64,000 nt of DNA from an uncultured bacterium (GTDB lineage Bacteria; Zixibacteria; MSB-5A5; GN15; FEB-12), in contig CBDVDR010000002.1 in NCBI GenBank assembly GCA_965372795.1, forward strand, positions 128,001 to 192,000, given 5' to 3'. The notes below the pieces were generated by a model. That model had not been told where the DNA came from. It ran no database searches and worked only from the letters and a program-made list of their open reading frames with translations. Both the position numbers and the translations under genes were made by a program. This document shows positions 8,278 to 64,000 of this stretch, piece by piece. The first letter of the stretch is position 1. Every line of letters begins with the position of its first letter.

Positions 8278-8327
8278 ATCTTTCATTTGGAACTTAAAGG
8301 AAAGTCATTTAGTTTAATATATAGAAG

Positions 8328-50105: not shown

Positions 50106-50885
50106 CTACTTGATGTCTTTAAGTCGTTCCCTGGCTTGTTGAGCTTCCAGTGTTTCAGGATATTCATCAATTAGTTTTTGGAACAATTTTTTTGCTTCAG
50201 CATTTTTACCCAGTTCCTGCTGGGATCGGGCTAATTTATAATATGCCCGTCCAAGATTTGGAGAAGTTTTGAAATCATTGATTAACTTTTCAAATTCAAT
50301 GACAGCATCCGGGTATTTTCCTAAAGCGTAATAACTTTCACCAATCCAGTAATGAGCATTGTCAACCGAGCCATGGGATGTACAGTTTTCAAGAAACTTT
50401 GTAAAACCGTCGATAGCCTGTTGATATTCACCGCGTCTTACCAGAATGAAAGCATCATCATATTTGTTGTCACATTCAAAACCGGTTGGCGAGGTTTGAC
50501 CTCCGGTAGTTTCAGCCGAGTTCTGAGAGGATCCGGGAGAACTTCTGATGATCGTCTTTACATTTTGTTTACGCGAGAGTTCATCAATTTTCTGCAACAG
50601 ATCGTTATAATTTTCAAGCAAAGCTGAAATCTGTCCCTGGATCTCGCCCATAGTGAAATTGACTTCATTACGAAGTTTGTTGTCAGCCTCAGCCGAGTAG
50701 CTGATTATCGAATCCATTCGGGTTACGAGATCCTGAGTTGTTTGATTCTGCTGTTCGACGTTGCGAATTTCTGCTTTTACTTCATCAATGTGTCTTGGAG
50801 TGACACAGTTGGTGAGTATTAAAGCGCAAAATATAACCGCCATTGAAAGAATGGCGGTTATAAAAATATTACGATTTTTAATCAT
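50106..50885 (-). CDS. cpoB: Tol-Pal system protein CpoB/YbgF (lipoprotein form)
   Basis: Lipobox LTNC, coiled coil, TPR domain Y..A......Y..AI..F..FL...NAHYWIGESYY, YP....A..A..RL; follows pal. Confidence 0.88.
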   Translation of the reverse strand: MIKNRNIFITAILSMAVIFCALILTNCVTPRHIDEVKAEIRNVEQQNQTTQDLVTRMDSIISYSAEADNKLRNEVNFTMGEIQGQISALLENYNDLLQKIDELSRKQNVKTIIRSSPGSSQNSAETTGGQTSPTGFECDNKYDDAFILVRRGEYQQAIDGFTKFLENCTSHGSVDNAHYWIGESYYALGKYPDAVIEFEKLINDFKTSPNLGRAYYKLARSQQELGKNAEAKKLFQKLIDEYPETLEAQQARERLKDIK

Positions 50886-50902
50886 ATTTAATCTTACTTA
50901 AG

Positions 50903-51421
50903 TTATTGTGAAACAATGCGGAATTCACAACGACGATTTTTAGCCCAGGCATCTTCGGTCTGACCTCTGTCAGCCGGGCGTTCTTTACCAAAGCTGAGAG
51001 TTGAGATACGGTTTTCCGGGATTCCCAGCCCTATGAGATAATCCATGGCTGCTTTGGCTCTTTTTTCGCCGAGTGAAAGGTTGTATTCCACAGTACCACG
51101 TTCATCACAATGACCTTCAATTTTAATGATGGCATCGGAGAATTCCTGGAGCAGTTCATAGTTTTTGTCCAGAGCCGATCTGGCATCATTGCGAAGGTTG
51201 TGTTTATCAAAATCAAAGTACAAGGTTACAAGCTGTGATTCTTTCATCTTTGGCGGTGGAGGCGGAGGCGGTGGTGGCGGTGGTGGCGGCGGCGGTGGTG
51301 GTTCGACCGGTTGTTCAATTGGTGCTTCATCAACAATTGGCGCTTTTTTGCCACAAGAGACGTTAAAAATTATGGCAAAGGTCATCAGTCCGATAACTGC
51401 CAATAGTCCAATTCTTTTCAT
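50903..51421 (-). CDS. pal: Peptidoglycan-associated lipoprotein with 17-Pro linker
   Basis: Lipobox VSC-GKK; YFDFDK, IEGHCDERGT.EYNL.LGEKRA, S.GKERP, AWAKNRR; start ATG 51421. Confidence 0.95.
   Translation of the reverse strand: MKRIGLLAVIGLMTFAIIFNVSCGKKAPIVDEAPIEQPVEPPPPPPPPPPPPPPPPPKMKESQLVTLYFDFDKHNLRNDARSALDKNYELLQEFSDAIIKIEGHCDERGTVEYNLSLGEKRAKAAMDYLIGLGIPENRISTLSFGKERPADRGQTEDAWAKNRRCEFRIVSQ
51251..51301 (-). repeat. (CCN)17 polyproline-coding tract in pal
   Basis: 17 consecutive Pro codons mixing CCA/CCG/CCT. Confidence 0.95.
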
Positions 51422-51604
51422 TTGATTTTCCTTCCATGTATAGAACATATTCTTTTATTCTTTTTTCAATGTAACCAATTTAAGAGATGAAAAAAACATG
51501 GTCAATAAAAAAACTGCTAAAAGCAGTTTTTTTTGCATCAAGCAGTTTTTTAAATTTCCAGTATTCGGACGTAAATATAGGACTTTATGACACTTGATTC
51601 ATTT

Positions 51605-52933
51605 TTAATGAAGGGGTCCCCAGACAGGATTTGAGCAATTTCCGTATCTTGTTAATCTTCTCTGGTTGCGGCCGGTAATATCCATTGTGAAAATGTCCTG
51701 TGGTCCGAGCCGGGTAGAGGAAAAGATAATATGTTTACCATCAGGCGAGAAGTGGGGGTTTTCATTCATGCCGACTTCAGTTAAAACCCTGAAATCTGCT
51801 CCGGAAGTGTCAATTGAAGCCAGATCGAAGCGTCCAAACTTGGTTCGACTGACAAAAGTCAGCCGGTCACCATGCTGGGACCAGATCGGTGAATCATTAT
51901 ATCGTCCTTCATAAGTCAAACGGCGGACGTTTAAGCCGAAGGAATCCATAATATAGATTTGAGGCCGTCCGGTTCGGTCGGAGACAAAGGCGATATGTTT
52001 GCCATTCGGCGACCAGGTGGGCGAGGTGTCAATGGCGCGATGTCGGGTAAGTCTTTTGATGACTTTGCCTTCCAAGTCGAGCAGGTAAATTTCGGAATTA
52101 CCATCTTTAGACAAAACACAGGCGATTTTATCACCATCGGGTGACATAGAAGGCGCGCCCATCATTCCGGGAAAATCACCTATTTTTTTTGTTATTAAGC
52201 TGTTGACATCAACGCTGTACAATTGCGGATCCCCGTGCATGTAGCTGGTAAAGAAAACAAATTTTCCATCGGGAGAAAATGAGGGAGAGATATTTATAGA
52301 CTGATTATTGGTCAGTTGTCTTTCGTTGGCACCGTCAAAGTCAGAGATATAGAGTTCTTTATTTTCCCCATTTCGTTTTGCGTAGACAATTTTAGAGAAG
52401 AATATGCCGGTTTCGCCAGTTAGCGTTTTGACGACTTCGTTGGCAATTTCATGTCCGAGCAGCCGCCATTCACTTTTTCTTTTTTCAACTTTTCCGCGGG
52501 CAAATTGTTGTTTTCTAATGGTGTCGACTAAGCTCCAGCGGACCCTGATATTTTTTCCCGGAAACTCGGCTTCAAGCCTGATCAGGTAAGTTGCTCCAAG
52601 TCGTGACCAGCCTAAAGCGTCAAGTTCGGTGATTTCATAAGTTTTCATATAGAAACTGTCAATCAGAATGAGTTCGAAATCAGCATAAAAGTCGATGTCA
52701 AATTGAACTACAGCTGTGATGTATCGCATGAGGGTAGAATCGTTCCGGCTGATATATTGATTTCCGATGTATTTCATTTCGTCGACACCGATTGGAGTAG
52801 AAGAGACATCGCCGGTACGAAGCGTGTCAAACAGATATTCGAATACTTCCTGTTCACTGTCCTGAGCCGAAGGGGAAGAGATTATGATTAAGAATAATAA
52901 AAATATTAGTGTGCAAATCCTGGTGGCTTTCAT
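51605..52933 (-). CDS. tolB: Tol-Pal beta-propeller protein TolB
   Basis: H.IANEVV..LTGETG.F.SKI, D.DGAN, PD40 repeats SP.FSPDG/P.WSP.G. Confidence 0.92.
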   Translation of the reverse strand: MKATRICTLIFLLFLIIISSPSAQDSEQEVFEYLFDTLRTGDVSSTPIGVDEMKYIGNQYISRNDSTLMRYITAVVQFDIDFYADFELILIDSFYMKTYEITELDALGWSRLGATYLIRLEAEFPGKNIRVRWSLVDTIRKQQFARGKVEKRKSEWRLLGHEIANEVVKTLTGETGIFFSKIVYAKRNGENKELYISDFDGANERQLTNNQSINISPSFSPDGKFVFFTSYMHGDPQLYSVDVNSLITKKIGDFPGMMGAPSMSPDGDKIACVLSKDGNSEIYLLDLEGKVIKRLTRHRAIDTSPTWSPNGKHIAFVSDRTGRPQIYIMDSFGLNVRRLTYEGRYNDSPIWSQHGDRLTFVSRTKFGRFDLASIDTSGADFRVLTEVGMNENPHFSPDGKHIIFSSTRLGPQDIFTMDITGRNQRRLTRYGNCSNPVWGPLH

Positions 52934-52947
52934 CGAGACCTCATTAT

Positions 52948-53661
52948 TTATGGTTTATATTGGAAAGGTAAAGTTATTCCGATTATTTCATCGACAAATT
53001 TATTAGGCAAAGGCGGGAATGGGGCAGCATTTTGTACGGCAAGAATACAGGCATTATCAAAGGCGATAATTTCAGATGAATTCACAACTTTTACTTCGAC
53101 CAATCTTCCCGATTTAATGACTTGAAAATAAATAGTACAGGTAATCGAAATATCGATAGCAATCGGGTTGCGCCAGTTGCGTCTGATTTTCTGGAAAGCT
53201 TGAGTAAACCAATAGGGATAATTAAATGATGCATTATCAATGGTGACACCTCCAAACGGAGTCCCCGCTCCGGTTCCGGGGGCGTCGACTTCTTTTTGGG
53301 TGCCGGTGGCGTTTTCGGTTTGTCCAGAGACCGGTTTGGTTATTTTCTTTTTTGGTTTATCGGGTTTTGGTTTCAGTTTGTCTTTTGGTTTTGGCGGTTC
53401 TTCTTTGGGAATGATAGCTTCAGGGAGAGTAGTCGGGTCATCAATCGGAATTTCAGGCATGGCTTCGTCAATAGCTTCCGGTACAATCGGCGCCGGGATT
53501 GGAGCCGGTTCATCAAATGACAGTTCGGGCATGGCGGTAAGAGATACTTTAATCACATTATCGAAGGTCTGTTTCTTTCCAATGTCAAACGGAGTAGTCG
53601 CAACCATAAACAGAACAATAATTAAATGAAGGATTAATGATAAGGTGATATCGAGTTTCAT
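52948..53661 (-). CDS. tolA: TolA/TonB family energy transducer
   Basis: N-terminal S..LH TM motif, Pro/Lys-rich linker, TonB_C-like I.RNW..P...SG.....S....FD.....AV..AAPFP.LP; position in tol operon. Confidence 0.8.
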   Translation of the reverse strand: MKLDITLSLILHLIIVLFMVATTPFDIGKKQTFDNVIKVSLTAMPELSFDEPAPIPAPIVPEAIDEAMPEIPIDDPTTLPEAIIPKEEPPKPKDKLKPKPDKPKKKITKPVSGQTENATGTQKEVDAPGTGAGTPFGGVTIDNASFNYPYWFTQAFQKIRRNWRNPIAIDISITCTIYFQVIKSGRLVEVKVVNSSEIIAFDNACILAVQNAAPFPPLPNKFVDEIIGITLPFQYKP

Positions 53662-53665
53662 CGGT

Positions 53666-54091
53666 CTACCGTTTACTTTTCTTTTTATCCTCTTGAGAGG
53701 TTATCAGGCTGATGCCATCAATGCCCATATCTTTCATTCTTCCGATAACGGCAATAGCAGTGCCATAATCAACGGCTGAGTCTCCACGAAGGTACACTGA
53801 TGATGTGTTTTTGGCTGACAATTCTTTTTCAAGAGCAACCTCAAAATTTTCCAATCGGGACCAGACATCATTAATATAGATTCCATTTTTAGCATCAATG
53901 GTAACAACAACACCATCGGCTTCTTCTTCAACCGCAGCTGCTTTGGTTTTGGGGAGGTTGACTTCAATGCCTGATTGGAGTAAAGGGGCTGATATCATAA
54001 ATATAATAAGCAGAACCAGCACAACATCAACTAAGTTGGTGATATTGATTTCCGCCATGGCTCCATAGGTTCTGTGGCGGGGTCTACGCAT
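53666..54091 (-). CDS. tolR: TolR/ExbD
   Basis: EINITNLVDVVLVLLIIFMI.APL, V.LP, LRGD..V.YG. Confidence 0.88.
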   Translation of the reverse strand: MRRPRHRTYGAMAEINITNLVDVVLVLLIIFMISAPLLQSGIEVNLPKTKAAAVEEEADGVVVTIDAKNGIYINDVWSRLENFEVALEKELSAKNTSSVYLRGDSAVDYGTAIAVIGRMKDMGIDGISLITSQEDKKKSKR

Positions 54092-54807
54092 TAGAGAGTC
54101 TCCTTTTTAGCTTTACTCATAAATTCAATAATAAAATTGTTGGCGGTATCACTGATGACTTTCATTTTATTATTTGCCCAGTTAAATGCGATTACCGCCG
54201 GAATGGCAGCGCCCAAGCCAACAATAGTAGCCAGTAAGGCTTCGGCAATACCCGGGGCAACAACAGCAAGCGAGGCTGAGCCACGTTCGCCGATTGACCA
54301 GAAAGAATCCATAATACCAACGACCGTACCGAGGAGTCCTAAAAACGGGGCAGCATTAGCCGTTGTGGCAAGGAAAATGACCTGTTTTTCAAGAATTGCC
54401 ATTTGTTCGGTCAGTGTTTTTTCCATGCTTAGTTCTATTATTTCAAAATCATCATTTTTGAGAGGATTAAATTTCTCTTGTAATCCACCGCCTTCATTTT
54501 TCATTTCATTCAGGCTGTTCATTTCCGTAAAACCGGATTCAAAAATGTTTGAGAATGGTGACTGGCTATGAGATTTTGCCTGTCCGATAGAATCAGCCAA
54601 TTTTCTTGAGCCTCGGAAATATTTCAAAAAGCGGTTGTTATCATGTTCAACAGCACGGTATTGACGCCATTTGTGAAAAATAATAACCCATGAGATAACA
54701 GACATTGAAGCGAGGACTAAAAGGATAAAAATGCCAAAGACAGATGAATTTCCAATAATCTGCCAGACTGATCCGGAAAAAATTCCGGGAAGTATTAATG
54801 TATTCAT
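54091..54807 (-). CDS. tolQ: TolQ/ExbB proton channel
   Basis: L...S..SW, LAT....APFLGLLGTV.GI..SF, VAPGIAEAL.AT..GL.AAIPA. Confidence 0.9.
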   Translation of the reverse strand: MNTLILPGIFSGSVWQIIGNSSVFGIFILLVLASMSVISWVIIFHKWRQYRAVEHDNNRFLKYFRGSRKLADSIGQAKSHSQSPFSNIFESGFTEMNSLNEMKNEGGGLQEKFNPLKNDDFEIIELSMEKTLTEQMAILEKQVIFLATTANAAPFLGLLGTVVGIMDSFWSIGERGSASLAVVAPGIAEALLATIVGLGAAIPAVIAFNWANNKMKVISDTANNFIIEFMSKAKKETL

Positions 54808-54941
54808 ACTTGTTGTACGCTCGTACCTTTCAAAAGTTTACTGCAACTGACCAGTCGCAATTATTCTCCTTAATTCAGTCAGAATATATACCGATGATAA
54901 ATGGAATCGTCAACAAAAAGAAATTTGAGAAACTTGAATAA

Positions 54942-55028
54942 GACACTTCGTTTTTATGGGGCAGACGAGCACACAGCAGGGCTAAAAAAAACAGATTCAC
55001 CCCCAAACAAGTTTGAGGGTGCCACCCG
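54942..55028. repeat. REP-like cluster related to the 27-29 kb elements
   Basis: ACACTTCGT; TTATGGGGCAGACGAG (15/16 with 27315-27330); CACCCCCAAAC-AA-GTTTGAGGGTG-CCACCCG sharing the GCCACCCG end of 29007-29014. Confidence 0.6.
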
Positions 55029-55052
55029 ACGCCCACACAAAACATTTAAAAA

Positions 55053-55079
55053 AAAAGCCTCTCAAAATGAGAGGCTTTT
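55053..55079 (-). terminator. Intrinsic terminator of glmL-like operon
   Basis: AAAAGCCTCTCA-AAA-TGAGAGGCTTTT. Confidence 0.8.
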
Positions 55080-55098
55080 AAAATATTAGAAAATAATA

Positions 55099-56223
55099 TT
55101 AGTCTTCGATCATTTCCACGTTAGCGCGAGGGATAATGGCTCTTTTTCCATCCTCAAATTCTACTTCAAGCACGCGAGCCTTTGATTCGGATTCAAGAAC
55201 ATGAAGCGGGGAAGGAAGGTCTGTGACCGACCCAATCTTTCCAAAATATGGATGACGGATCACACGAACCGGAGTACCGGTTTTTAAGCCCTGGATTTCT
55301 GTGTCAGCTTCCGAAGTATCAATCCGTTCTTCGGTTGATGGAATTACAACTTCCGGTCTGATAACACCGGCACGAATCTGGGTGGCACCGTTGATGCAAG
55401 CCATTTCGCCTTCATGTTTTTTCAGAAGGTCAAAAGTTTTTGAAGCCATGTTGATTTCTCCAAAACCTTCGGTTACAACTAAAGTAACAGAGATATCTTC
55501 TGAACCGGTAATGGCAACACCGATGTCGTAGCCAAGGAAATCACGCAAGTCTTTGTCATTAAAACCACCAACAACGATCCCTTTGGCGCCGACTTCAATA
55601 GCTTTTTGCAAAGCTCCGGCAGTTACAAGAGAACCGCCAACAATGACTTTATCTTTCATGTCAGGATTTATTAAATCTTCTGTTAGCACGGTGGCATTGT
55701 CAGGGGTGGCGATAACGATATTTCCATAAGTTTCACCGCCGATACCAAAGATTCCCTGAACAAAAGAAGCATTACAAGTGACAACTACGCCTTCGTTGGG
55801 GATGACTTCGGTCACTTCACCGCGAAGATAAGCTTTGACTTCAACCGGGACCGGTAGTCCGCGTTGGAGGATTTGGCCGGTAATATGAGAAACAGATTCC
55901 AGAGTACCATTGATTGTAGCTTCAGCCGAAGAAGAGAAGAATTTAATAAATGATTTTTTAATTGCGATAGCTTCGCCTTCTTTAATTGTGTCGCCCTCTT
56001 TTTTAACCATGACCATTTCGAGATCTTCAGGAGGTAATCCAAGTTTGTTGGCTATATTCAGAGGAACTACATTACCGGGTAGGTGAGTACGAGCCACAAC
56101 AACATCGGGGGTAACTTTGTCGCCAACTTTTACCACTACATCACCCTTGAGGGGGAGGATGCGACTTTTTTGAACCAGTAATTTTTCGGTGACTTTGAGT
56201 CCCGGAGTATAGGCATGTGCCAT
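55099..56223 (-). CDS. Hypothetical protein with barrel-sandwich-hybrid-like motifs and C-terminal KOW/SH3-like domain
   Basis: VKVGDKV, KKEGDTIKEGEAIA, ATINGTLESV, AYLRGEVTEV; VQGIFGIGGE, GAKGIVVGG, VTEGFG, TQIRAGVIRPE; G..VRVIR.PYFG..G.V. Confidence 0.75.
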   Translation of the reverse strand: MAHAYTPGLKVTEKLLVQKSRILPLKGDVVVKVGDKVTPDVVVARTHLPGNVVPLNIANKLGLPPEDLEMVMVKKEGDTIKEGEAIAIKKSFIKFFSSSAEATINGTLESVSHITGQILQRGLPVPVEVKAYLRGEVTEVIPNEGVVVTCNASFVQGIFGIGGETYGNIVIATPDNATVLTEDLINPDMKDKVIVGGSLVTAGALQKAIEVGAKGIVVGGFNDKDLRDFLGYDIGVAITGSEDISVTLVVTEGFGEINMASKTFDLLKKHEGEMACINGATQIRAGVIRPEVVIPSTEERIDTSEADTEIQGLKTGTPVRVIRHPYFGKIGSVTDLPSPLHVLESESKARVLEVEFEDGKRAIIPRANVEMIED

Positions 56224-56250
56224 AGGTTTAAACCTTCCTAAATTCTTATA

Positions 56251-57006
56251 TTATGATCGAGCTTTTTTTCTTTTTTTAATAACAATAAATAAAACAACAG
56301 CAATCGCCACAAAGATAGCAACTTTCGAACCGTTGCTGCTGCCATCATCGGAGTCAGTTCCTGTTTCAATATCAGCAATTTTCACATTCTCTTTTGGAAG
56401 CGCCGCATCGACGTTTTCATCAGAGAAGGTGTTTACCATATCATAAAAGTCATTTTTACTTGTTTCAAAGAGCGAGTCAGGAGAATAGAAGAAGAATTTT
56501 GCAATTCCCCGGTTATAGAATTTGAACATTAAGAGATTCTTTTTAAAAGATTCTGCTTTTTGAGACACATCGTTTAAAACCGAAACGATCTTTTTTTCTT
56601 TGTCATAGTTGGGTGCGTTTGATTTGAGATCGGTCAGGTAGTTTGCGACCGGAAAGTATTTAAGATCCTCACCGAATAGCTTAGTCATGGTTGCGAGGAC
56701 CGAGTCAATTTGTTTATCTGACAGTTGTCCGATTTTGTCGTAGGTCAAAAACAGATATTCGCCATTATAAAAGGGGTCGTTTGTTTTGGGAGCAAAAACC
56801 GCATCATAGTAAAAACTGGCATCACCGACGTTGTTCTGTGCTAAGTACAAATCGACCGTTGGGTAATCAATTTTCACCCAGTCATCAGGGAGATTAAAAT
56901 AAAACTCGCCGCTTAAACTGACATAGTTTTTTGCAAACGAACTTGTCAGAGTTACAGTTATTAATACTATTACTACAATTGTAAGCAGTTTAATAAAAGC
57001 TCTCAT
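56251..57006 (-). CDS. Exported hypothetical protein with C-terminal TM anchor and basic tail
   Basis: Signal peptide, F.LPDDW, acidic linker, VAIFVAIAVVLFIVI-KKRKKARS. Confidence 0.75.
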   Translation of the reverse strand: MRAFIKLLTIVVIVLITVTLTSSFAKNYVSLSGEFYFNLPDDWVKIDYPTVDLYLAQNNVGDASFYYDAVFAPKTNDPFYNGEYLFLTYDKIGQLSDKQIDSVLATMTKLFGEDLKYFPVANYLTDLKSNAPNYDKEKKIVSVLNDVSQKAESFKKNLLMFKFYNRGIAKFFFYSPDSLFETSKNDFYDMVNTFSDENVDAALPKENVKIADIETGTDSDDGSSNGSKVAIFVAIAVVLFIVIKKRKKARS

Positions 57007-57009
57007 ACA

Positions 57010-58884
57010 TTATTCCCCTGTTAAAGCTTGAAGTTTTTCGGTTGAATAAATATCCAACTCATTCATCCATTTGGTTAAATAACTAACTCTGTCCTTTTCG
57101 CTCAAGGTTGACAGATCAAAAGGTCTGCCACGACCATCAAGGATAACACCGACCACGCCGCCATAAACATCTTTTTCGATTTTCTGTCCTTTACCGGCGC
57201 CAAGATCGTAATGTTTGGTAGGTTCAAACGTAGCTTTGGCAACTATCGGGAGTCCGTTTTCCTGAATACCGAGGTTGAATTTTTTCATTTCGAGATGTTC
57301 AAGAGTACCACTGACCGTTCCGGATGGAAGTTCAATAGTGTAATTCATAACCGGTCCGGCACCTTTTTTGGGAACACCAACCGGGGCAACACAGGTACCA
57401 AGATGGATCAGGCAATCTTTTTCAAATACTTCAGTAGCAGCTTTTGGCTGAACTTCGGTCAAGACCCCAAGCTGAGGCATCATGAAGATTGAGTCGACAG
57501 CCAGACGGGTGACACCTTCCGGTAAGAAAGAATCAATCATCATCAAAGCTGATTGCTGACGGCGAGGTGCGTGAGAAAGAACACCGCCGGAACCGATAAG
57601 CATATCGAGCGTCATCATGTTTACAATGGTAGCACCGGAAGCCGACTGTTCGAAAGCATCGGCAATGGTACGCTGTTGTTGAACGCCTTTTAAGACGGTC
57701 GCAAAGTTTTTGTGCTGAATGAAGGCGAGACGAAGAGCTTCTTTGGCAATTGCCTGTTCAAAAATTAGTTCTTCAAGAGATTGCGGGATCGTAGTCGGGC
57801 GAATCATTTTGTTTTTAACACGGTTTCTGAGGTCGCGTTCATCCATCGGGAATGGTACCCAGCGCATAACCATAGGCAGGGTAGCTTCGGCAAATACATT
57901 TGAGATAGAGTATGACATGCCAAGGTTAGCTGATACCGTACGGTTAAAGACGCCTTCGCCGTCATCTTCCGGACGGAAGACAGAGAATACATCGGTGGTT
58001 GCTCCACCAATGTCAACGCCAACGGCTTCAATATTGTACTGTTCGGCGATAGTTTGAATAATCAGACCAACTGCTCCCGGGGTAGGCATAATTGGAGCAT
58101 CGCCCCATTCCATTAGTTTTTTATAGCCGGGTGCCTGAGCCATGACGTGTTCCATGAACAGTTCATGGATTTCTTCACGGGCAGGACCAAGATTTTCACG
58201 TTCTAAGACAGGACGAAGATTGTCGACAACTTTTAAGTCAACTTTATCAGAAAGAGTTTCTTCAACGTTTTTAGCGGCATCTTTATTGCCGGCATAAATA
58301 ATCGGTAGTTTGTAACTTGAGCCAAGACGAGGGCGCGGGTCGGCGGCTGAAATAAGTTCGGCAAGTTCGACTACGTGAGTAGTTGTGCCACCGTCAATGC
58401 CGCCGGACAGGAGAATCATGTCGGGGCGTAAGTGGCGAATGCGTTCAATTTGTTGATGGGGGAGACGTTTATCATTGGATGAGATAACGTCCATGACAAT
58501 TGCGCCGGCACCAAGGGCGGCACGTTCGGCTGATTCGGCAGTCATTGATCTGACCACGCCGGCAACCATCATCTGTAAGCCACCTCCGGCTGATGATGTA
58601 GAGATGAAGACATCGGTACCAGTATTACCTTGGGCAGGGGAAATGAATTTGCCGTTTTCGTCAAGAATTTTCCTGCCGGATAATTCTTCGAGTTCCGCAA
58701 CAGCGTTGAGAACGCCCATAGTTACATCTTCAAACGGTGCTTCAACCGTAGTTGGAGCTTCACCTCTTGTAGTTTGGCGATACTCACCATTAATGAATTC
58801 AATAAGAATTGCTTTTGTAGTAGTAGATCCGCAATCGGTGGCGACAATAATTTTAATATCGTCAGGGTTATCAAACTTAGCCAT
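57010..58884 (-). CDS. GlmL/MutL-like (glutamate mutase L family) ASKHA-fold ATPase
   Basis: TDCGSTTTKA, PTTV, SSAGGGL.M.V.G, TAESA.RAALGAGA, PDMILL.GG.DGG, IIYAGN, N.RP, MPTP.AV, VDIGGATTDVFS, RTV.ANLGM. Confidence 0.85.
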   Translation of the reverse strand: MAKFDNPDDIKIIVATDCGSTTTKAILIEFINGEYRQTTRGEAPTTVEAPFEDVTMGVLNAVAELEELSGRKILDENGKFISPAQGNTGTDVFISTSSAGGGLQMMVAGVVRSMTAESAERAALGAGAIVMDVISSNDKRLPHQQIERIRHLRPDMILLSGGIDGGTTTHVVELAELISAADPRPRLGSSYKLPIIYAGNKDAAKNVEETLSDKVDLKVVDNLRPVLERENLGPAREEIHELFMEHVMAQAPGYKKLMEWGDAPIMPTPGAVGLIIQTIAEQYNIEAVGVDIGGATTDVFSVFRPEDDGEGVFNRTVSANLGMSYSISNVFAEATLPMVMRWVPFPMDERDLRNRVKNKMIRPTTIPQSLEELIFEQAIAKEALRLAFIQHKNFATVLKGVQQQRTIADAFEQSASGATIVNMMTLDMLIGSGGVLSHAPRRQQSALMMIDSFLPEGVTRLAVDSIFMMPQLGVLTEVQPKAATEVFEKDCLIHLGTCVAPVGVPKKGAGPVMNYTIELPSGTVSGTLEHLEMKKFNLGIQENGLPIVAKATFEPTKHYDLGAGKGQKIEKDVYGGVVGVILDGRGRPFDLSTLSEKDRVSYLTKWMNELDIYSTEKLQALTGE

Positions 58885-58988
58885 TTGAAAAAACCTGTTA
58901 TTTAAATTTTAAAATTCTCTTACTTTATTGCGATAACTAATGAAACCAAAATAGTTTATCGCTTACAGTCCGTTTAACAAAGGGTGGC

Positions 58989-59017
58989 ATTATACATAAA
59001 ACATCAAATCTTGTAAA
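58989..59017 (-). promoter_or_regulatory. Sigma70 promoter of glmL-like operon
   Basis: Minus strand TTTACA-N17-TATAAT. Confidence 0.65.
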
Positions 59018-59160
59018 GAGCCTTTTTAGTATAAATTAGAATTATAAGACGGCAAATAGCGGGAATTATCCAATTTATCAGAAAATGAAATTTATCGAAC
59101 GCTTTGTAGTTCATTCACAGATAGTTACAAGGGTTAAATTGCACTAATCTTTCTTTTTTC

Positions 59161-59189
59161 TTGACTTCAAAATACCAGTCTGATAGATT
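59161..59189 (+). promoter_or_regulatory. Sigma70 promoter of DUF6754 membrane operon
   Basis: TTGACT-N17-TAGATT with TGn extension. Confidence 0.65.
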
Positions 59190-59291
59190 GGCAACTTATT
59201 AGTATTTTATGAGGTTTGTTCTGATTTTTAGTTTGATGTTTTAAACAAGTTAATCGTTACTGAATTAACTCTAACTTGAAATGTTGGTTCT

Positions 59292-60587
59292 TTGGTTGAG
59301 GAAATGACTTTGAGTGACTTTTTGAACAATACACCTTCCATAAAAATTTTCAGGAATTACCTTATATATACATTTTTGTTACTTTTCCTAATTACATCAA
59401 ATATTTATTCACAAGATGAAATAGAGCCGGTTGATGAGCCAGCTCAAGTCTCCGATTCAGTCTTAGAAACTTTTGTACCTTCTCCCATAACTGGAATTTC
59501 GGTAAAAGATACTCCTAATGATGCCGGTAATTCAATTACAATCACTTGGGGATTATCACCTGATGATACAGTTGGCGGTAAAGTAGTAAAATATAGAATT
59601 CTCCGGTCTGATACCAGTTTTGCCGGGGATGGATATAAAGAGGTCGGCGATGTGCCGGCTGATAAAAATGAATATATTGATGGTCAGGTTGATGACGATC
59701 ATGTTTATACTTATGTAATCTCTACGGTTAATAATGTAGTAGAGAATGGTGAAACAGTTTGGGAAGTTTCAACCGAATCAGATCAGTCTGAACCGGTAAG
59801 TTCTTCGGCCCAATGGTTTGATATGAGGCGTATCAACGTCTTTGTCGGGGTGTTGATGGTTTGTGCCTTCATTATGTATTATATCAATCAGGCCAAATCA
59901 GGGAAGAAACTGTTTATACGTAAAATTGCCGGACTTGAAGCGGTGGATGAAGCTGTTGGCCGGGCAACTGAGATGGGGAAGAAGATTTTCTTTATACCCG
60001 GCACTCAGGATATGGATAATGTTCAGACGATTGCCGGAGTTACGATTTTAGGGCGTGTTGCCGAAATGGCTGCCACCTATGACACCTGGCTTGAAGTTCC
60101 CGTTTCACGTTCATTAGTATTAGTAACTGCCAAAGAGATAGTAAAAGAGGCTTACTCCAAAGCCGGTCGTCCAGATGCATTTAATGAAGATCAGGTACAT
60201 TATTTAACGGATGACCAGTTTGGGTATGCGGCGGGTATTGACGGCATGGTAGTACGTGAAAAACCGGCGACAATTTTCTTTATGGGTGCATTTTATGCCG
60301 AATCACTGATTTTGGCTGAAACCGGTAACTCAATCGGTGCGATTCAAATTGCCGGAACCGGAATGCCTTCACAACTGCCATTCTTTGTTGCTGCTTGTGA
60401 TTATACTTTAATAGGTGAAGAATTATTTGCCGCATCGGCGTATCTTTCCCGTGAGCCAAAACTTCTTGGTTCATTAAAGGGGCAGGATATGGGGAAAGCG
60501 GTAATTTTGGTAGCGATAATAATTGGAATTATATTGGAAACTTTTAATATATGGAATTTTTCATCACTATTTACGGTGATTGAGTAA
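59292..60587 (+). CDS. FN3 + DUF6754-type membrane protein (paralog 1; exact start uncertain, 59292-59310)
   Basis: Signal, FN3-like (ITITW..S.D...KY.I.R...Y.D...Y.Y.I), TM, IRKIAGLEAVDEAVGRATEMG...AESLILAETG..GAIQIAGT...QLPFF...D.TLIGEELFAASAYLS, C-terminal TM. Confidence 0.8.
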   Translation: MVEEMTLSDFLNNTPSIKIFRNYLIYTFLLLFLITSNIYSQDEIEPVDEPAQVSDSVLETFVPSPITGISVKDTPNDAGNSITITWGLSPDDTVGGKVVKYRILRSDTSFAGDGYKEVGDVPADKNEYIDGQVDDDHVYTYVISTVNNVVENGETVWEVSTESDQSEPVSSSAQWFDMRRINVFVGVLMVCAFIMYYINQAKSGKKLFIRKIAGLEAVDEAVGRATEMGKKIFFIPGTQDMDNVQTIAGVTILGRVAEMAATYDTWLEVPVSRSLVLVTAKEIVKEAYSKAGRPDAFNEDQVHYLTDDQFGYAAGIDGMVVREKPATIFFMGAFYAESLILAETGNSIGAIQIAGTGMPSQLPFFVAACDYTLIGEELFAASAYLSREPKLLGSLKGQDMGKAVILVAIIIGIILETFNIWNFSSLFTVIE

Positions 60588-60590
60588 GCG

Positions 60591-61238
60591 ATGCGTAGAG
60601 AAATACCGTTATTAATAACCGGCATCGTCGGTGTGGTTTTTGTGATTCAATATTTTGTTCCACATGCCCCCTTTGATCGGATGAATGCATGGTTTTCGGA
60701 TTGGTTTTCTATAATAGGTGCCTGTGCTATCTGGCTTGGTGCGCTTAATTTGTTGAAGATATCTTTCCAAAAGACAATGAAAAAGAAAGCTGACTGGGGT
60801 TATGCCGTTGTTACAATAATTTCTTTTTTCCTGATCACAATAATCGGATTTACTGCGGGCGAAGGGTTTCGGGAGCCGGGAACAGGCTTTACCTGGCTTT
60901 ATGATTTTGTATACACGCCGCTTTCGGCAACGATGTTTGCAATCTTAGCCTTTTTTGTCGCGTCAGCTTCTTATCGCGCTTTTAGAGCCCGAAATCTTGA
61001 TGCGACCCTTCTATTAGTAGCTGCGTTTTTGGTGATGATTGGAAGAGTGCCGGTGGGATATAGTATATCGTCATTTATGCCGGATGCTTTTCAGCTTCAA
61101 AATATAGCGACCTGGATAATGCAGTTTCCTCAGACTGCCGGCCAGCGGGCAATTATGATTGGTATCGCTCTTGGGATTGTCTCTACATCACTCAGAATTA
61201 TTCTTGGTATTGAACGTTCACATCTGGGGGGTGATTAA
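60591..61238 (+). CDS. Hypothetical polytopic membrane protein (about 6 TM)
   Basis: PL.ATMFA.LAFF.ASA.YRAFRARN, G.RAI.IG.ALG....LR.ILG.ER. Confidence 0.8.
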   Translation: MRREIPLLITGIVGVVFVIQYFVPHAPFDRMNAWFSDWFSIIGACAIWLGALNLLKISFQKTMKKKADWGYAVVTIISFFLITIIGFTAGEGFREPGTGFTWLYDFVYTPLSATMFAILAFFVASASYRAFRARNLDATLLLVAAFLVMIGRVPVGYSISSFMPDAFQLQNIATWIMQFPQTAGQRAIMIGIALGIVSTSLRIILGIERSHLGGD

Positions 61239-62249
61239 TTGAGTACAAAAATTAAAGAATTGATTGTAGTAGCAATTATTCTGATTGTATCAATTGTATT
61301 TTATTTAGCAAAAATAAATAGCTGGTTTGGAGCAATTAAATTTTCAACGACCGTATCAATGATAATTGTCGGATTGATTTTTATCTCCTTATTGTATATT
61401 CTTTTCTTGACTCTAAAAGGGAAGCCGGTTGGTCGAAGGACAGTTTTCTTATATGTCGGTATTGCGGTATCACTTCCATTTTTTATGGATATTTCCCAGA
61501 CAATAAAGATTTCTCCAGAGGTTCAAACTTTGTATGATTGGATCGAAACCCTTCCGCCGGGTTCCAAAGCATTAGTGTCATTCGATTATGATCCTCCTTC
61601 AGCACCTGAACTTCAGCCGATGGCAGAATCATTTTTCCGCTTCTGTTTTAATAATGATATCAAAGTCATAATTATAGGTCTTTGGCCACAAGGTCCTCAA
61701 CAGGCGAACCTTGCCCTTGAAGTTGTTTTACAGGATGAAAATATAGCGGCTAAAAATTTACAGTATGGTATTGATTACGTTAATTTGGGATTCCAAACCG
61801 GGAATGAGTTTGTTATTCAAAGGATGGGTGCGGATTTTAAATCAATGTTTCCGACAGATTATTCCGGAACCGCTTACGATGATCTTCCTTTAGTAAAGAA
61901 CGTAAAGAATTTTGATAATATAGATTACAGTTTTAATTTATCTGCCGGTTATCCGGGAACAATCGAGTGGGTGCAGGTAGCGGTTGACCGTTACGCTGTT
62001 GATTTGGGTGCCGGCAATACTGCCGTACAGGCACCGCAATGTTATCCATATCTGAGGTCCGGACAGTTGAAAGGGATTCTCGGCGGCATGAATGGTGCGG
62101 CTGAATTTGAATTACTTACCGGACATGAAGGTAAAGGCACAAAGTTTATGTTGTCTCAATCATTTGCTCATATGGTTGTGATAGCATTTATTCTTATTGG
62201 TAATGTCGCCTATTTCAGGGGCGGTCGAGAGAAGAAACTCAAAGGTTAA
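61239..62249 (+). CDS. Hypothetical membrane protein with large alpha/beta domain
   Basis: 3 N-terminal TMs, SFDYDP....EL.PMA, YG.DYVNLGF, PY..SGQL.G..GG..GAAE.E, C-terminal TM; TTG start abuts previous stop. Confidence 0.8.
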   Translation: MSTKIKELIVVAIILIVSIVFYLAKINSWFGAIKFSTTVSMIIVGLIFISLLYILFLTLKGKPVGRRTVFLYVGIAVSLPFFMDISQTIKISPEVQTLYDWIETLPPGSKALVSFDYDPPSAPELQPMAESFFRFCFNNDIKVIIIGLWPQGPQQANLALEVVLQDENIAAKNLQYGIDYVNLGFQTGNEFVIQRMGADFKSMFPTDYSGTAYDDLPLVKNVKNFDNIDYSFNLSAGYPGTIEWVQVAVDRYAVDLGAGNTAVQAPQCYPYLRSGQLKGILGGMNGAAEFELLTGHEGKGTKFMLSQSFAHMVVIAFILIGNVAYFRGGREKKLKG

Positions 62250-62256
62250 GCGAATT

Positions 62257-62880
62257 ATGGATCATTTTTCAGTATGGGTTGCAGCTTTTTTTACAATGGG
62301 AATTGTTTCCTTTTTGTACAAGGACAATCACTGGTACAAACTCTGTGAATCAATTTTTGTTGGGATTTCTGCCGGATACTGGTTTGTGACTTTGTTCTGG
62401 GATAATATCTACGGGAAATTCTGGCTTGGCAAGGGTGAAGACCCGATGCTTTATGTCGGAGCCTTGTTGGGATTAATGATGATTCTCAGGTTGATTCCTA
62501 AAATTGGATGGATCTCCCGTTGGCCCTTGGCATTCATTGTCGGTGCGACCTCGGGTTTGTATCTTATAAATTATTTTTCATCAAATATAATGCGTCAGGT
62601 TGAAAATACGGTTATGCCGTTATTTGGCGCCGGATATGAAGCTGGAATTTATACTATAATCGGTAATATTATTGTGGCCGTCGGTACGTTTTCAGGGCTG
62701 ATTTATTTCTTTTTCTCAAAAGAACACAAAGGCGCCTTTGGCGCTACCGCCCGAGTCGGAATTATCTTTTTAATGATAACTTTCGGTGCATCTTTTGGCT
62801 ATACCGTTATGAGCCGTATGTCGCTTTTGATCGGACGAATTGACTTCCTGCTTGGCGACTGGCTGGGGATGATTAACTAG
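62257..62880 (+). CDS. Hypothetical polytopic membrane protein (about 6 TM)
   Basis: SFLYKDN..YK..E.IFVG.SAG, YFFFS..H, FLM..FGA.FG.TV..R..LL..R..FL; start ATG 62257. Confidence 0.8.
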   Translation: MDHFSVWVAAFFTMGIVSFLYKDNHWYKLCESIFVGISAGYWFVTLFWDNIYGKFWLGKGEDPMLYVGALLGLMMILRLIPKIGWISRWPLAFIVGATSGLYLINYFSSNIMRQVENTVMPLFGAGYEAGIYTIIGNIIVAVGTFSGLIYFFFSKEHKGAFGATARVGIIFLMITFGASFGYTVMSRMSLLIGRIDFLLGDWLGMIN

Positions 62881-64000
62881 TGAGAAATAAAAAATCAAAA
62901 TTACCTTTGTTGTTTTTATCAATTTTAATCGTCATCTCATTTAATATTTCAATCTTTTCTCAGGAAACTCCGGTTGTTGAAGAGGTAGATTCAACAATTA
63001 TTGTTGCCGCCCCGGTAACATCTCTGATAGCATCTGATTTTAAATATGATGATGGAGAAGCCATTGAATTAAGCTGGGTGCCGTCGATAGACGACCAACT
63101 GGTTGAGGGGAAAGTAATTGCTTATCGGGTTTACCGGAGAACAAATGGTGCTTTAGAGGAAAAGATTGCCGAACTACCGAAAGGTTCTGCTTACTACCGT
63201 GATGACGGTTTGGAAAAAGAGAATAGCTATATGTATAGTGTCACTTCTGTTTCGCTAAATTTTGAGCAATTCTCAACCGAGACGGCGCCGATTAGTCCTG
63301 AGAGAGAATGGCTTAACTATGATCGTTCGTATTTATTCTTAATAGCATTAATTATCACTTTGGCAATCGCTTTTTTCATAGAAACCGCCCGTCGCGGGAA
63401 AAAATTATTTGTCCGGAAGATTGCCGGATTAGAAGCTATTGACGAAGCAATCGGTCGTGCGACCGAAATGGGACGTCCGATTTTATATGTTCCGGGTATT
63501 CAGGATATGGATGATGTGCAGACTCTTGCCGGTTTAACAATTCTTGGACGAGTCTCCCGAATGATTGCTGAATATGATACCCGAATTTTTATGCCTGTTT
63601 CCCGTTCGTTGGTTATGACCGCCGGACGTGAAACGATTAAAGCTGCCTATCAATCAGCCGGTCGTCCTGATGCTTATAGCGATGACATGGTAAACTATAT
63701 AACAGACGAACAGTTTGGTTATGTTGCGGCGGTAGATGGAATTATGGTCCGTGAAAAACCGGCGACCTGTTTCTACATGGGAGCTTTCTTTGCGGAATCG
63801 CTTATTTTAGCAGAAACCGGAAATTCAATCGGAGCCATTCAGATAGCGGGTACTGCCCGTCCGGCACAGCTTCCATTTTTTATTGCCGCCTGTGATTTTA
63901 CTCTTATTGGTGAAGAACTGTTTGCAGCTTCGGCATATTTATCTAACGAACCAAAGCAGTTGGGTTCGTTAAAGGGTCAGGATATCGGCAAAGCGATAGC
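62880..64000 (+). CDS. FN3 + DUF6754-type membrane protein (paralog 2), 3' truncated by window edge; absent from the ORF track
   Basis: GTG overlapping previous stop; translated by hand MRNKKSKLPLLFLSILIV...IELSWVPSIDD...VRKIAGLEAIDEAIGRATEMG...AESLILAETGNSIGAIQIAGT...LIGEELFAASAYLS..PK.LGSLKGQD. Confidence 0.85.
   Translation, partial: MRNKKSKLPLLFLSILIVISFNISIFSQETPVVEEVDSTIIVAAPVTSLIASDFKYDDGEAIELSWVPSIDDQLVEGKVIAYRVYRRTNGALEEKIAELPKGSAYYRDDGLEKENSYMYSVTSVSLNFEQFSTETAPISPEREWLNYDRSYLFLIALIITLAIAFFIETARRGKKLFVRKIAGLEAIDEAIGRATEMGRPILYVPGIQDMDDVQTLAGLTILGRVSRMIAEYDTRIFMPVSRSLVMTAGRETIKAAYQSAGRPDAYSDDMVNYITDEQFGYVAAVDGIMVREKPATCFYMGAFFAESLILAETGNSIGAIQIAGTARPAQLPFFIAACDFTLIGEELFAASAYLSNEPKQLGSLKGQDIGKAI

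Follow-up and report, generated by a model that had tools for sequence, protein, structure and literature searches.

A long-form GlmL/MutL-like ATPase and DUF6754 membrane modules: one conserved bacterial system and probably a new kind of ATP-coupled membrane machine

Layout of the locus

What does a MutL-family ATPase do when its gene stands back to back with an operon of membrane proteins, none of which belongs to a family with a studied member? This question is raised by a locus in a Zixibacteria genome, at the end of a 64,000-nucleotide stretch of DNA that was analysed as a whole (the window). The locus contains both halves of one system, a minus-strand trio including the ATPase gene and a plus-strand membrane operon, which are transcribed divergently here, with a 407-bp spacer between them. 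The open reading frame coordinates agree with those of an initial annotation made from the sequence (8/8); in the numbering of the locus (L001), each coordinate is the window coordinate minus 52000. The features are as follows.

50106..54807, minus: Tol-Pal operon (tolQ, tolR, tolA-like, tolB, pal, cpoB/ybgF), a neighbour outside the system
55053..55079, minus: terminator-like hairpin (12-bp stem and T run) between tolQ and P374, whose stop codon is 20 nt away
55099..56223, minus: P374, predicted three-domain cytoplasmic partner of the ATPase, 374 aa (AlphaFold model and fold matches)
56251..57006, minus: P251, exported protein of 251 aa, anchored in the membrane at its C-terminus and encoded between the ATPase and P374
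57010..58884, minus: long-form GlmL/MutL-like ASKHA ATPase, 624 aa, with a MutL domain (13-491) and a C-terminal extension of ~130 aa
58989..59017, minus: promoter-like site upstream of the ATPase gene (11/12 consensus matches; a pattern match)
59161..59189, plus: promoter-like site upstream of A1 (9/12 matches, extended -10 TG; a pattern match)
59292..60587, plus: A1, with a signal-like N-terminus, exported FN3, TM, cytoplasmic DUF6754 (PF20539; six beta-alpha units) and TM
60591..61238, plus: B1, polytopic membrane protein by hydropathy, 215 aa
61239..62249, plus: C1, with TM(s), a soluble domain of ~210 aa and a further TM (hydropathy and sequence)
62197..62880, plus: D1, polytopic membrane protein by hydropathy, 227 aa when counted from the listed TTG, although translation may begin further downstream
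62880..64000, plus: A2, with which module 2 begins, truncated at the window end; the full gene (410 aa) ends at 64112
beyond A2 to ~70549, plus: remainder of modules 2 and 3 (B2, C2, D2, A3, B3, C3, D3)

The initial annotation had counted at least five translationally coupled membrane genes. The spacing at the gene junctions (3 nt, 0 nt, an overlap and a 1-nt overlap) indeed fits translational coupling, but the operon really comprises 12 genes, organized as three tandem paralogous four-gene modules, in each of which an A-type gene with the order FN3-TM-DUF6754-TM is followed by B, C and D. Inspection of the genes past position 64000, which had been recommended, revealed that modules 2 and 3 follow and that the operon ends ~6.5 kb past the window end, at a window-equivalent position of ~70549, where it is succeeded by a terminator-like hairpin. 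Two further ABCD modules are found outside the locus, on contigs C7 and C18, with no ATPase gene nearby, and the genome thus carries 1 ATPase, 1 P374 and 5 ABCD modules. Two small conserved companion genes are located on another contig. The seven proteins matched none of the families in the PADLOC anti-phage models.

The long-form ATPase and its partner P374

The 624-aa protein, which had been read as an ASKHA protein with both phosphate motifs, matches the Pfam MutL family (PF13941) over residues 13-491 with an E-value of 8.9e-130 and 433.9 bits, against a gathering score of 27. Its phosphate-1 (D17/G19-K24), phosphate-2 (D291-D298) and adenosine (S432-G434) motifs are invariant in 43 aligned homologues, in full agreement with that reading. 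With GlmL/MutL and Or-4 (PF13941; NF040745, NF040744) it shares the Pfam family, the ASKHA fold signature and both phosphate motifs, but it is ~160 aa longer than GlmL, has a conserved C-terminal extension, falls below every NCBIfam cut-off, and forms a separate, slowly evolving clade; moreover, it is encoded next to P374 and the DUF6754 modules, and in the genomes searched it was not found beside GlmE. GlmL and Or-4 are its best NCBIfam names, with scores of 240.7 against a cut-off of 475 (NF040745) and 223.4 against 600 (NF040744), and the match to glmL_fam (TIGR01319) reaches 177.5, below the cut-off of 204.05. In a quick tree that included 12 short GlmL sequences, the long-form proteins group closely together and are set off from short GlmL by a long branch (length 5, SH-aLRT 100); they are far more conserved than classical GlmL. 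Identity across phyla is 62-89%, a level more usual for core machinery, with a mean column identity of 60%.

The initial annotation had described the 374-aa protein as a barrel-sandwich/KOW protein, and this description is upheld by fold matches and by an AlphaFold model (pLDDT 92.8) in which a barrel-sandwich hybrid is combined with a swivelling beta/beta/alpha domain and a KOW/SH3-like domain. P374 is present in 244/251 genomes of the phylum sample; its relatives (E<=1e-3) amount to 2451 cluster representatives at 50% identity, and occur in at least 569 species-representative genome stretches. The swivelling phospho-histidine domain of PEP-utilising enzymes (PTS enzyme I, rifampin phosphotransferase, pyruvate kinase C-terminal domain) is among the closest known systems, as is the N-terminal barrel-sandwich domain of NqrA/RnfC. 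Among 85 sequences, no His or Cys occurs in the invariant columns. Assignment to PEP-utilising phospho-His domains was rejected: the fold is alike, but no His is invariant or 90%-conserved in the 85 sequences. Biotinyl/lipoyl carrier domains have a conserved modified lysine in a hairpin, and a carrier role was likewise discarded, as no Lys is found in invariant or 90%-conserved columns of the same set; PF00364 is present on only 11-21% of members of related Atlas clusters.

The membrane modules

DUF6754 is a catalogued Pfam family without a function, and A1, A2 and A3 are full-length members of it, scoring 426.5 (E 3.8e-128), 415.9 (E 6.2e-125) and 379.6 bits, respectively (overall range 380-428), against a cut-off of 27. 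The view of A1 and A2 as two similar FN3-TM-DUF6754-TM paralogs proved correct: both contain DUF6754, they are 49% identical, and the N-terminal FN3 beta-sandwich of A1 is confirmed by a profile as well as by a model (pLDDT 86.6), for which both fold-match lists are filled by the FN3 domain. The FN3 domain of A is exported and optional, and the A1, A2 and A3 paralogue classes are old. According to the A model and the distribution of charges, DUF6754 lies in the cytoplasm and the domain of C on the outer side.

Two 6-TM proteins had been noted. The description suits B1, for which a crude hydropathy scan shows about six TM peaks, but not D1, with only four peaks corresponding to approximately three to four segments in the same type of scan. 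B1 is 48% identical to B2 and 34% to B3. The ~210-aa domain of C1 is put outside the membrane by the positive-inside rule, and D116, E124, D179, D207 and E291 are invariant in C1, which has no sequence relative in the PDB. No Pfam family exceeded its cut-off in 46 members of B, 40 of C or 36 of D, nor did these members match known transporter, secretion or Rnf/Nqr membrane-subunit families over the Pfam/NCBIfam cut-offs, and profile comparison detected no homology between D and B. Scattered sub-threshold matches do occur, e.g. TMD0_ABC and Acyl_transf_3 in 6/46 members of B. The initial annotation knew of no functional characterisation of such a cluster, and this still stands: no family has a studied member, and the name DUF6754 appears in no paper of the literature searched.

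Linkage of the two halves across phyla

Within the order to which the genome belongs, the association looks shallow. DUF6754 matches number 2-6 per genome in 31/31 genomes, and the ATPase gene lies <=3 kb from a DUF6754 array in 14/17 same-family genomes having the ATPase and in 0/12 genomes of three sister families, a pattern that counts against the mechanism proposed below. Since adjacency in this lineage is both shallow and divergent, the genome and its close relatives alone would be misleading.

A wider comparison gives a different picture. Outside the Zixibacteria-like group, the ATPase, P374, A, B, C and D are encoded together in 17/48 loci, and the complete set is present in 14 of the 23 loci with full flanks (>=8 kb upstream and >=5 kb downstream); it is co-directional under at least seven phylum labels (Latescibacterota, Eisenbacteria, Planctomycetota, Fermentibacterota, Synergistota, Bdellovibrionota and Bacillota). 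The other 9/23 full-flank loci have P374 without ABCD in reach, which counts against the mechanism. All genomes examined with a lone P374 locus (5/5) encode the long ATPase and DUF6754 elsewhere. Deeper Zixibacteria lineages (L034, L035, L045, L050) display the co-directional order ATPase-P374-ABCD-ABCD-ABC, and three fusions join the ATPase to P374 (L022:8010-10958, a 982-aa frame; P0139, 995 aa; P0200, 1003 aa). In a phylogenetic profile of 151 Bacillota-phylum genomes, the long ATPase is found in 8, all of which also have DUF6754 and P374. DUF6754 occurs in 10 genomes (the 8 carriers, G277, and G361 with a weak partial match), and P374 in 9 (the 8 carriers and G268). Two exceptions count against the mechanism, namely G277, in which DUF6754 is present and the ATPase and P374 were not found, and G268, with P374 and a fragmentary ATPase, in which DUF6754 was not found. 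Overall, gene neighbourhood and phylogenetic profiling, the two comparisons that the initial annotation had suggested, were both positive, and the joint occurrence of the families across phyla does not depend on B12 mutases, as it had predicted. Comparative genomics leaves little doubt that the two halves belong to one conserved system.

Possible function and alternative explanations

This system is probably a new kind of ATP-coupled membrane machine, most likely one in which a shared cytoplasmic ATPase serves interchangeable membrane modules. In the mechanism that we propose, the ATPase-P374 pair would dock on the DUF6754 domain of A, the sole sizeable cytoplasmic part of the inner-membrane modules, ATP-driven domain closure would power transport or translocation via B, D and C, and one motor would serve five diverged modules, three here and two elsewhere in the genome. 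ATP-coupled transport or translocation of this form is a serious but tentative possibility. It has against it that none of the subunits matches a transporter family. We know of no ASKHA ATPase that powers a transporter, and the mechanism is therefore without precedent; that it represents the first class of transporters or translocases driven by an ASKHA ATPase, with modules tuned to different cargo by their exported domains, is conceivable and somewhat more doubtful. A similar logic may apply here as in ECF transporters, whose several substrate-binding membrane components are energised by one common module: each genome would pair a single ATPase unit in the cytoplasm with several membrane modules that have diverged. 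The ATPase, however, is of the ASKHA fold rather than ABC, and none of the subunits shows homology to components of ECF systems.

Hundreds of species from many phyla, known here almost only from metagenome-assembled genomes, carry the system, and its components, which lack a studied homologue, are publicly annotated as “glutamate mutase L”, “NusG” or “hypothetical”. Should the system turn out to be an ATP-coupled membrane machine, it would add a new energy-coupling principle to the ABC, P-type, V/F-type and AAA+ ones, and would account for a sizeable conserved block of dark-matter genes in groups such as Zixibacteria, Planctomycetota and Latescibacterota. The present genome is a useful case, in which five modules are combined with paralogue classes of long standing and an accessory protein specific to the lineage.

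It is unlikely, though worth weighing, that the long ATPase and P374 instead repair, load or reactivate a membrane-bound A-B-C-D enzyme, spending ATP on cofactor or subunit exchange without transport, on the model of GlmL and its presumed service to the coenzyme-B12-dependent glutamate (methylaspartate) mutase. Membership of the ATPase in Pfam MutL would agree with such maintenance, as would the position of short GlmL directly next to GlmE, seen in many of the 39 genomes of the 151-genome sample that have GlmE and fitting an accessory role of the family, and the many invariant acidic, basic and polar residues in the DUF6754 and C domains, which are enzyme-like. However, searches of A-D yielded no cofactor-binding family or motif, P374 is devoid of invariant His or Cys, the ATPase greatly exceeds classical GlmL in conservation, and one pair for five diverged modules with a variable exported FN3 better suits substrate-specific modules. 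A classical GlmL, i.e. an accessory of a glutamate or ornithine mutase that depends on B12 and has its gene elsewhere in the genome, can practically be dismissed: the Pfam MutL match and the best NCBIfam names point that way, but the scores are far below the equivalog cut-offs, the ATPase is in a separate clade, GlmE (PF06368) was not found in the genome (98.65% complete), and its four B12-binding-domain matches are all away from the locus. GlmE was found in 0/5 other carriers and in 1/8 long-form genomes, there beside that genome's own short GlmL. Within the reach of the analysis this reading is refuted, and a hidden mutase could be encoded only in the unassembled ~1% of the genome.

Actin-fold proteins with membrane partners are familiar from MreB-MreC-MreD, FtsA and PilM-PilN-PilO, in which an ASKHA-fold cytoplasmic protein is likewise encoded with bitopic and polytopic membrane proteins, although there is no Pfam or NCBIfam sequence relation, and here multiple paralogous modules are present per genome. 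By analogy, the ATPase might form a scaffold or filament positioning A-B-C-D for envelope growth or division, which the Tol-Pal neighbourhood in Zixibacteria would mirror; we regard this as rather improbable. Tol-Pal adjoins the trio in 10/11 orthologous loci of the order, TolQR is found in 6/12 Zixibacteria-like loci with full flanks, the ATPase is very conserved, and the small companion genes in this genome sit behind a TPR/LppC-like periplasmic protein. Yet TolQR occurs in 0/23 full-flank loci outside the group, P374 and tolQ have a terminator-like hairpin between them, the other neighbours that recur are catabolic (glycine cleavage genes directly upstream in 9-11 loci), and a genome such as G391, where DUF6754 copies number as many as 11 and the ATPase pair is present several times, would be unusual for a cytoskeletal system. 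Finally, the divergent halves could be mere inherited synteny, with the trio acting alone or with Tol-Pal and the DUF6754 modules being ATPase-free. The restriction of adjacency within the order to one family, the C7 and C18 modules and the separate promoter-like sites of the two halves are in line with this, but cross-phylum gene order, fusions and 8/8 co-occurrence are hard to explain without a shared function, making it very improbable.

Lineage-specific neighbours and regulatory sites

P251 has a signal-like hydrophobic N-terminus and a TM at 225-243 by hydropathy, and the initial annotation of an anchored exported protein holds in this respect, but not as regards its place among the core parts. 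It matches no Pfam or NCBIfam family, is merely 26-45% identical within the order, and was found in 14/24 Zixibacteria-like loci with >=2.5 kb upstream and in 0/39 such loci outside the group; the deeper Zixibacteria lineages listed above do without it. P251 is a lineage-specific insert outside the core system.

The back-to-back sigma70 promoters that had been postulated in the spacer are represented by hexamer pairs facing both ways, but the region contains 15 promoter-like sites, which is not above shuffles (10.7 +/- 3.5), and the pairs are therefore regarded as pattern matches only.

Directly downstream of the minus-strand trio, Tol-Pal is a lineage-specific neighbour. TolB (375.9 against 343.15), Pal (126.7 against 125.35) and YbgF (106 against 90.1) exceed their NCBIfam cut-offs, while for TolQ and TolR the best matches carry those names with scores below the equivalog cut-offs. 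The Tol-Pal operon, like the true length of the membrane operon, had been overlooked in the initial annotation.

Composition of the locus

All open reading frames named in the initial annotation were found in the window, and its gene listing holds for these; the complete Tol-Pal operon that adjoins the minus-strand trio (ATPase, P251 and P374) was absent from it. The five plus-strand genes that it had described as an operon are present, but they do not represent its whole extent, being the first part of 12 genes that form three tandem four-gene modules and run past the window end. Each module consists of a DUF6754 protein (A), a polytopic protein (B), a protein with a TM-domain-TM layout (C) and another polytopic protein (D). 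The main features, with coordinates continued beyond the window end where necessary, are as follows:

57010-58884, minus strand: long GlmL-like ATPase, 624 aa
56251-57006, minus strand: P251, 251 aa
55099-56223, minus strand: P374, 374 aa
55079-55053, minus strand: terminator-like hairpin with a 12-bp stem, 20 nt behind P374
54807 down to 50106, minus strand: complete Tol-Pal operon, on the same strand as the trio and after the hairpin
70549 (window-equivalent), plus strand: end of the 12-gene operon, with a terminator-like hairpin 21 nt later

The window's genome is a 3.35-Mb assembly with 38% G+C, assigned to Zixibacteria from the names under which near-identical proteins and loci are recorded. 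In it, the ATPase, P251 and P374 are each present in one copy. Module paralogues are 30-49% identical, with 49% identity between the A subunits of modules 1 and 2 (A1 and A2), and two further A-B-C-D modules, in which the A subunits are devoid of the N-terminal exported part, are found on contigs C7 and C18. The module on C7 is preceded by a 987-aa ORF without a family and a Ser/Thr kinase, and the end of its D gene is overlapped by a 386-aa ORF, likewise without a family (locus L009:6853-8013), while the module on C18 is divergent from a sugar-type ABC importer comprising a solute-binding protein and two permeases (locus L010:5519-8417). Beyond the end of the 12-gene operon, a 116-aa ORF without a family and then the start of a pyruvate phosphate dikinase gene occupy L001:19094-19999 (window-equivalent about 71094-72000).

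The closest named family of the long ATPase is GlmL/MutL: residues 13-491 match Pfam MutL PF13941 with 433.9 bits. At the equivalog level, membership fails, as the protein scores under all NCBIfam cut-offs (GlmL, 240.7 vs 475; Or-4, 223.4 vs 600; glmL family, 177.5 vs 204.05). An alignment of 43 sequences drawn from many phyla shows no variation in the phosphate-1, phosphate-2 and adenosine motifs and has a mean column identity of 60%; the C-terminal extension of about 130 aa has invariant Gly, Asp and Arg positions of its own. P251 combines a signal-like N-terminus with a membrane helix at its C-terminal end, and P374 yielded no family match in Pfam or NCBIfam.

Gene order within the order and across phyla

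DUF6754 is present in all 31 relatives examined from the window's order, and a MutL-family protein in 29 of them. Judging by coordinates, a DUF6754 array is no more than 3 kb from the ATPase in 14 of the 17 genomes of the same family that have the ATPase. This is so in none of 12 genomes from three sister families: the distance there is 12-19 kb or about 400 kb, or the two are on separate contigs. The trio is conserved in 11 orthologous loci from these genomes, with identities of 76-87% for the ATPase, 60-73% for P374 and 26-45% for P251, the last of which was not detected in one locus; Tol-Pal adjoins the trio in 10 of the 11. From these data, drawn from the window's own order, the trio was initially read as belonging with Tol-Pal, and it was the loci from other phyla that reversed this reading.

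The cross-phylum search was based on an alignment of 85 P374 relatives. A P374 relative is encoded in 569 of 603 pattern-matched stretches from species-representative genomes, and the best 80 of these 569 loci were used. They comprise 32 Zixibacteria-like loci (L023-L051, L053, L061 and L074), assigned on the strength of their label or because their P374 is at least 61% identical to that of the window, and including some labelled, for example, Ignavibacteriales or Calditrichaeota, and 48 others. The full set of ATPase, P374, A, B, C and D is present in 17 of these 48, most commonly in that order and on a single strand. If only the 23 non-Zixibacteria-like loci with full flanks (at least 8 kb upstream and at least 5 kb downstream) are considered, ABCD is present in 14 and TolQ/TolR in none, and on this basis the association of the trio with Tol-Pal rather than with the DUF6754 array was rejected. 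In the 39 non-Zixibacteria-like loci that extend 2.5 kb or more upstream, P251 was not found. The clusters carry the labels Latescibacterota, Eisenbacteria, Planctomycetota, Fermentibacterota, Synergistota, Bdellovibrionota and Bacillota.

In deeper Zixibacteria (L034, L035, L045 and L050), two to three ABCD modules come after the ATPase-P374 pair, co-directional with it, and P251 is missing. Since the co-directional cluster is common elsewhere, the divergent orientation in the window, the insertion of P251 and the adjacency of Tol-Pal appear to be derived from it by later, lineage-specific rearrangements.

In the remaining nine of the 23 full-flank loci, P374 is alone, with no ABCD within reach. 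Five of these nine genomes were searched whole, and every one encodes, away from P374, one to three DUF6754 proteins and a long frame of the MutL family (606-628 aa).

The ATPase and P374 were found fused into a single reading frame in three cases, indicating that they act as one unit: a 982-aa frame at L022:8010-10958 (genome G029, contig C109), which a Zixibacteria relative has as a paralogous copy, and P0139 and P0200, database representatives of 995 and 1003 aa. The L022 copy is diverged (43% identical in the ATPase part and 27% in the P374 part), and G029 also has a normal split pair.

Independence from glutamate mutase

A phylogenetic profile was compiled from 151 genomes around a Bacillota-labelled carrier, G256, in a phylum with few carriers of the system (E<=1e-10; the genomes are related, so that the counts do not constitute a statistical test). 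The MutL family is present in 58 of them, in eight as the long form, which was defined by a frame of at least 584 aa and a score of 319-431 bits rather than by a separate model. All eight long-form genomes have both DUF6754 and P374. Otherwise, DUF6754 was seen only in G277 and, as a weak partial match, in G361 (10/151 in total), and P374 only in G268, beside a fragmentary MutL match (9/151). GlmE, which commonly adjoins the short GlmL, occurs in 39 of the 151 genomes, among them a single long-form genome, G401, where it lies beside that genome's short GlmL on a different contig from the long form with its DUF6754 and P374. Whole-genome search did not find GlmE in the window's genome, nor was it found in five carriers from other phyla. 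A quick maximum-likelihood tree, to which long-branch warnings apply, was built from 28 long-form and 12 short-form sequences; in it, the long ATPase forms one tight clade, set off from the short forms by a branch of length 5 (SH-aLRT 100).

Shared gene order, the 8/8 overlap in the profile and the absences of GlmE thus bear out the proposal that these families co-occur across phyla independently of a B12 mutase. It is highly probable that the ATPase, P374 and A-B-C-D constitute one conserved gene system of this kind.

In four genomes of the Bacillota-phylum sample (G391, G351, G341 and G256), the long ATPase and P374-like genes each occur in several copies, and DUF6754 matches number as many as 11; many of the P374 paralogues concerned have two barrel-sandwich-part matches per reading frame.

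Predicted structure of the subunits

P374 was modelled as three domains (pLDDT 92.8) and A1 at pLDDT 86.6, the latter beginning with a signal-like helix followed by an FN3 domain. Features assigned from the models are:

P374, residues 312-374: KOW/SH3-like domain (model and fold matches)
A1, residues 178-202: first TM helix, with a Lys/Arg-rich stretch after it (model)
A1, residues 213-386: six beta-alpha units (model)
A1, residues 389-417: second TM helix (model)

No whole-chain fold match was obtained for P374 with Foldseek (query TM-score <=0.24). Its 85-sequence alignment contains no conserved His, Cys or Lys, which excludes both a phospho-His and a biotin/lipoyl carrier. For A1, FN3 matches occupied both lists of the full-length fold search, and the only non-FN3 lead, the Nir2 LNS2 domain, was unusable (rmsd 27.8). 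The DUF6754 domain probably faces the cytoplasm by the positive-inside rule, given the Lys/Arg-rich stretch after the first TM helix, and may be Rossmann-like, judging by its secondary-structure pattern. In subunit C, the domain of about 210 aa, which has invariant Asp and Glu residues, is placed outside the membrane by the basic C-terminal tail and a conserved Arg-Arg ahead of the N-terminal TM. B and D are polytopic by hydropathy and showed no relation to known families; hhalign rejected them as duplicates of each other (probability 3%), as it did A and C (2%). PDB searches returned no sequence relatives for P374, the ATPase or C, and for A only those of the FN3 part.

In a midpoint-rooted tree of the DUF6754 domain (43 rows), the A1, A2 and A3 types form separate supported Zixibacteria clades (97/98, 100/99 and 100/99), with A2 placed with Planctomycetota copies and A3 with second copies from other phyla. 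The tree shows the DUF6754 paralogue classes to be old.

Possible mode of action

The system fits none of the membrane machines described so far. To our knowledge, DUF6754 is a catalogued family name without a function. The literature searched, in which subscription journals are mostly outside coverage, yielded no publication on this system, no paper naming DUF6754 or PF13941 and none joining glutamate mutase with ASKHA; the titles and abstracts listed on Zixibacteria and MutL included nothing relevant, and glutamate mutase together with GlmL led to a single paper, on mesaconase. No public sequencing runs, RNA included, are listed for window positions 54500-62500. The initial observation is confirmed and extended, and the interpretation put on it is supported in its core, with the mechanism unproven.

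A transport-type mechanism is a tentative reading, to which we give somewhat less than even confidence. The ATPase-P374 pair would dock on the DUF6754 domain, as the putative sole large cytoplasmic part of the module, and would drive a step across the membrane via B, D and C; in the window's genome, one pair would have to serve five diverged modules. The relationship of the ATPase to GlmL/MutL also brings up the maintenance of a membrane enzyme in a GlmL-like manner, which we consider unlikely, and an actin-like envelope scaffold is more doubtful still. The absence of any link between the two halves in the window's genome, which are divergently transcribed there and separated in the sister families, is very improbable in view of the single-strand clusters and the profile, and the function of a classical GlmL, with no GlmE found in the genome, is of negligible probability. 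An anti-phage defence system was rejected, as there was no PADLOC match.

Companion genes and other neighbours

In 24-30 of the best 80 loci, the ATPase is preceded by two small genes (about 150 and 137 aa), neither with a Pfam family; one or both are present in 15 of the 23 full-flank non-Zixibacteria-like loci. In the window's genome, the homologues of the two (48% and 59% identical) are together on contig C5, detached from the window locus. In addition, gcvT-gcvH-gcvP1-gcvP2 lies directly upstream of the ATPase on the same strand in 9-11 loci, labelled Eisenbacteria or Fermentibacteria or belonging to unlabelled MAGs, which is possibly a metabolic hint or else shared synteny. The positions are:

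L103:7711-8262 and 8259-8717 (C5:152711-153717): companion homologues, behind a 595-aa TPR and Peripla_BP_6/LppC-like protein
L052, L062, L064, L067, L069, L083, L085, L093, L096, L097, L100: loci with glycine cleavage neighbours

The ESM Atlas contains one cluster of subunit-C look-alikes (score 0.90), commonest in Bathyarchaeota, which hints that A-B-C-D modules may also occur in archaea.
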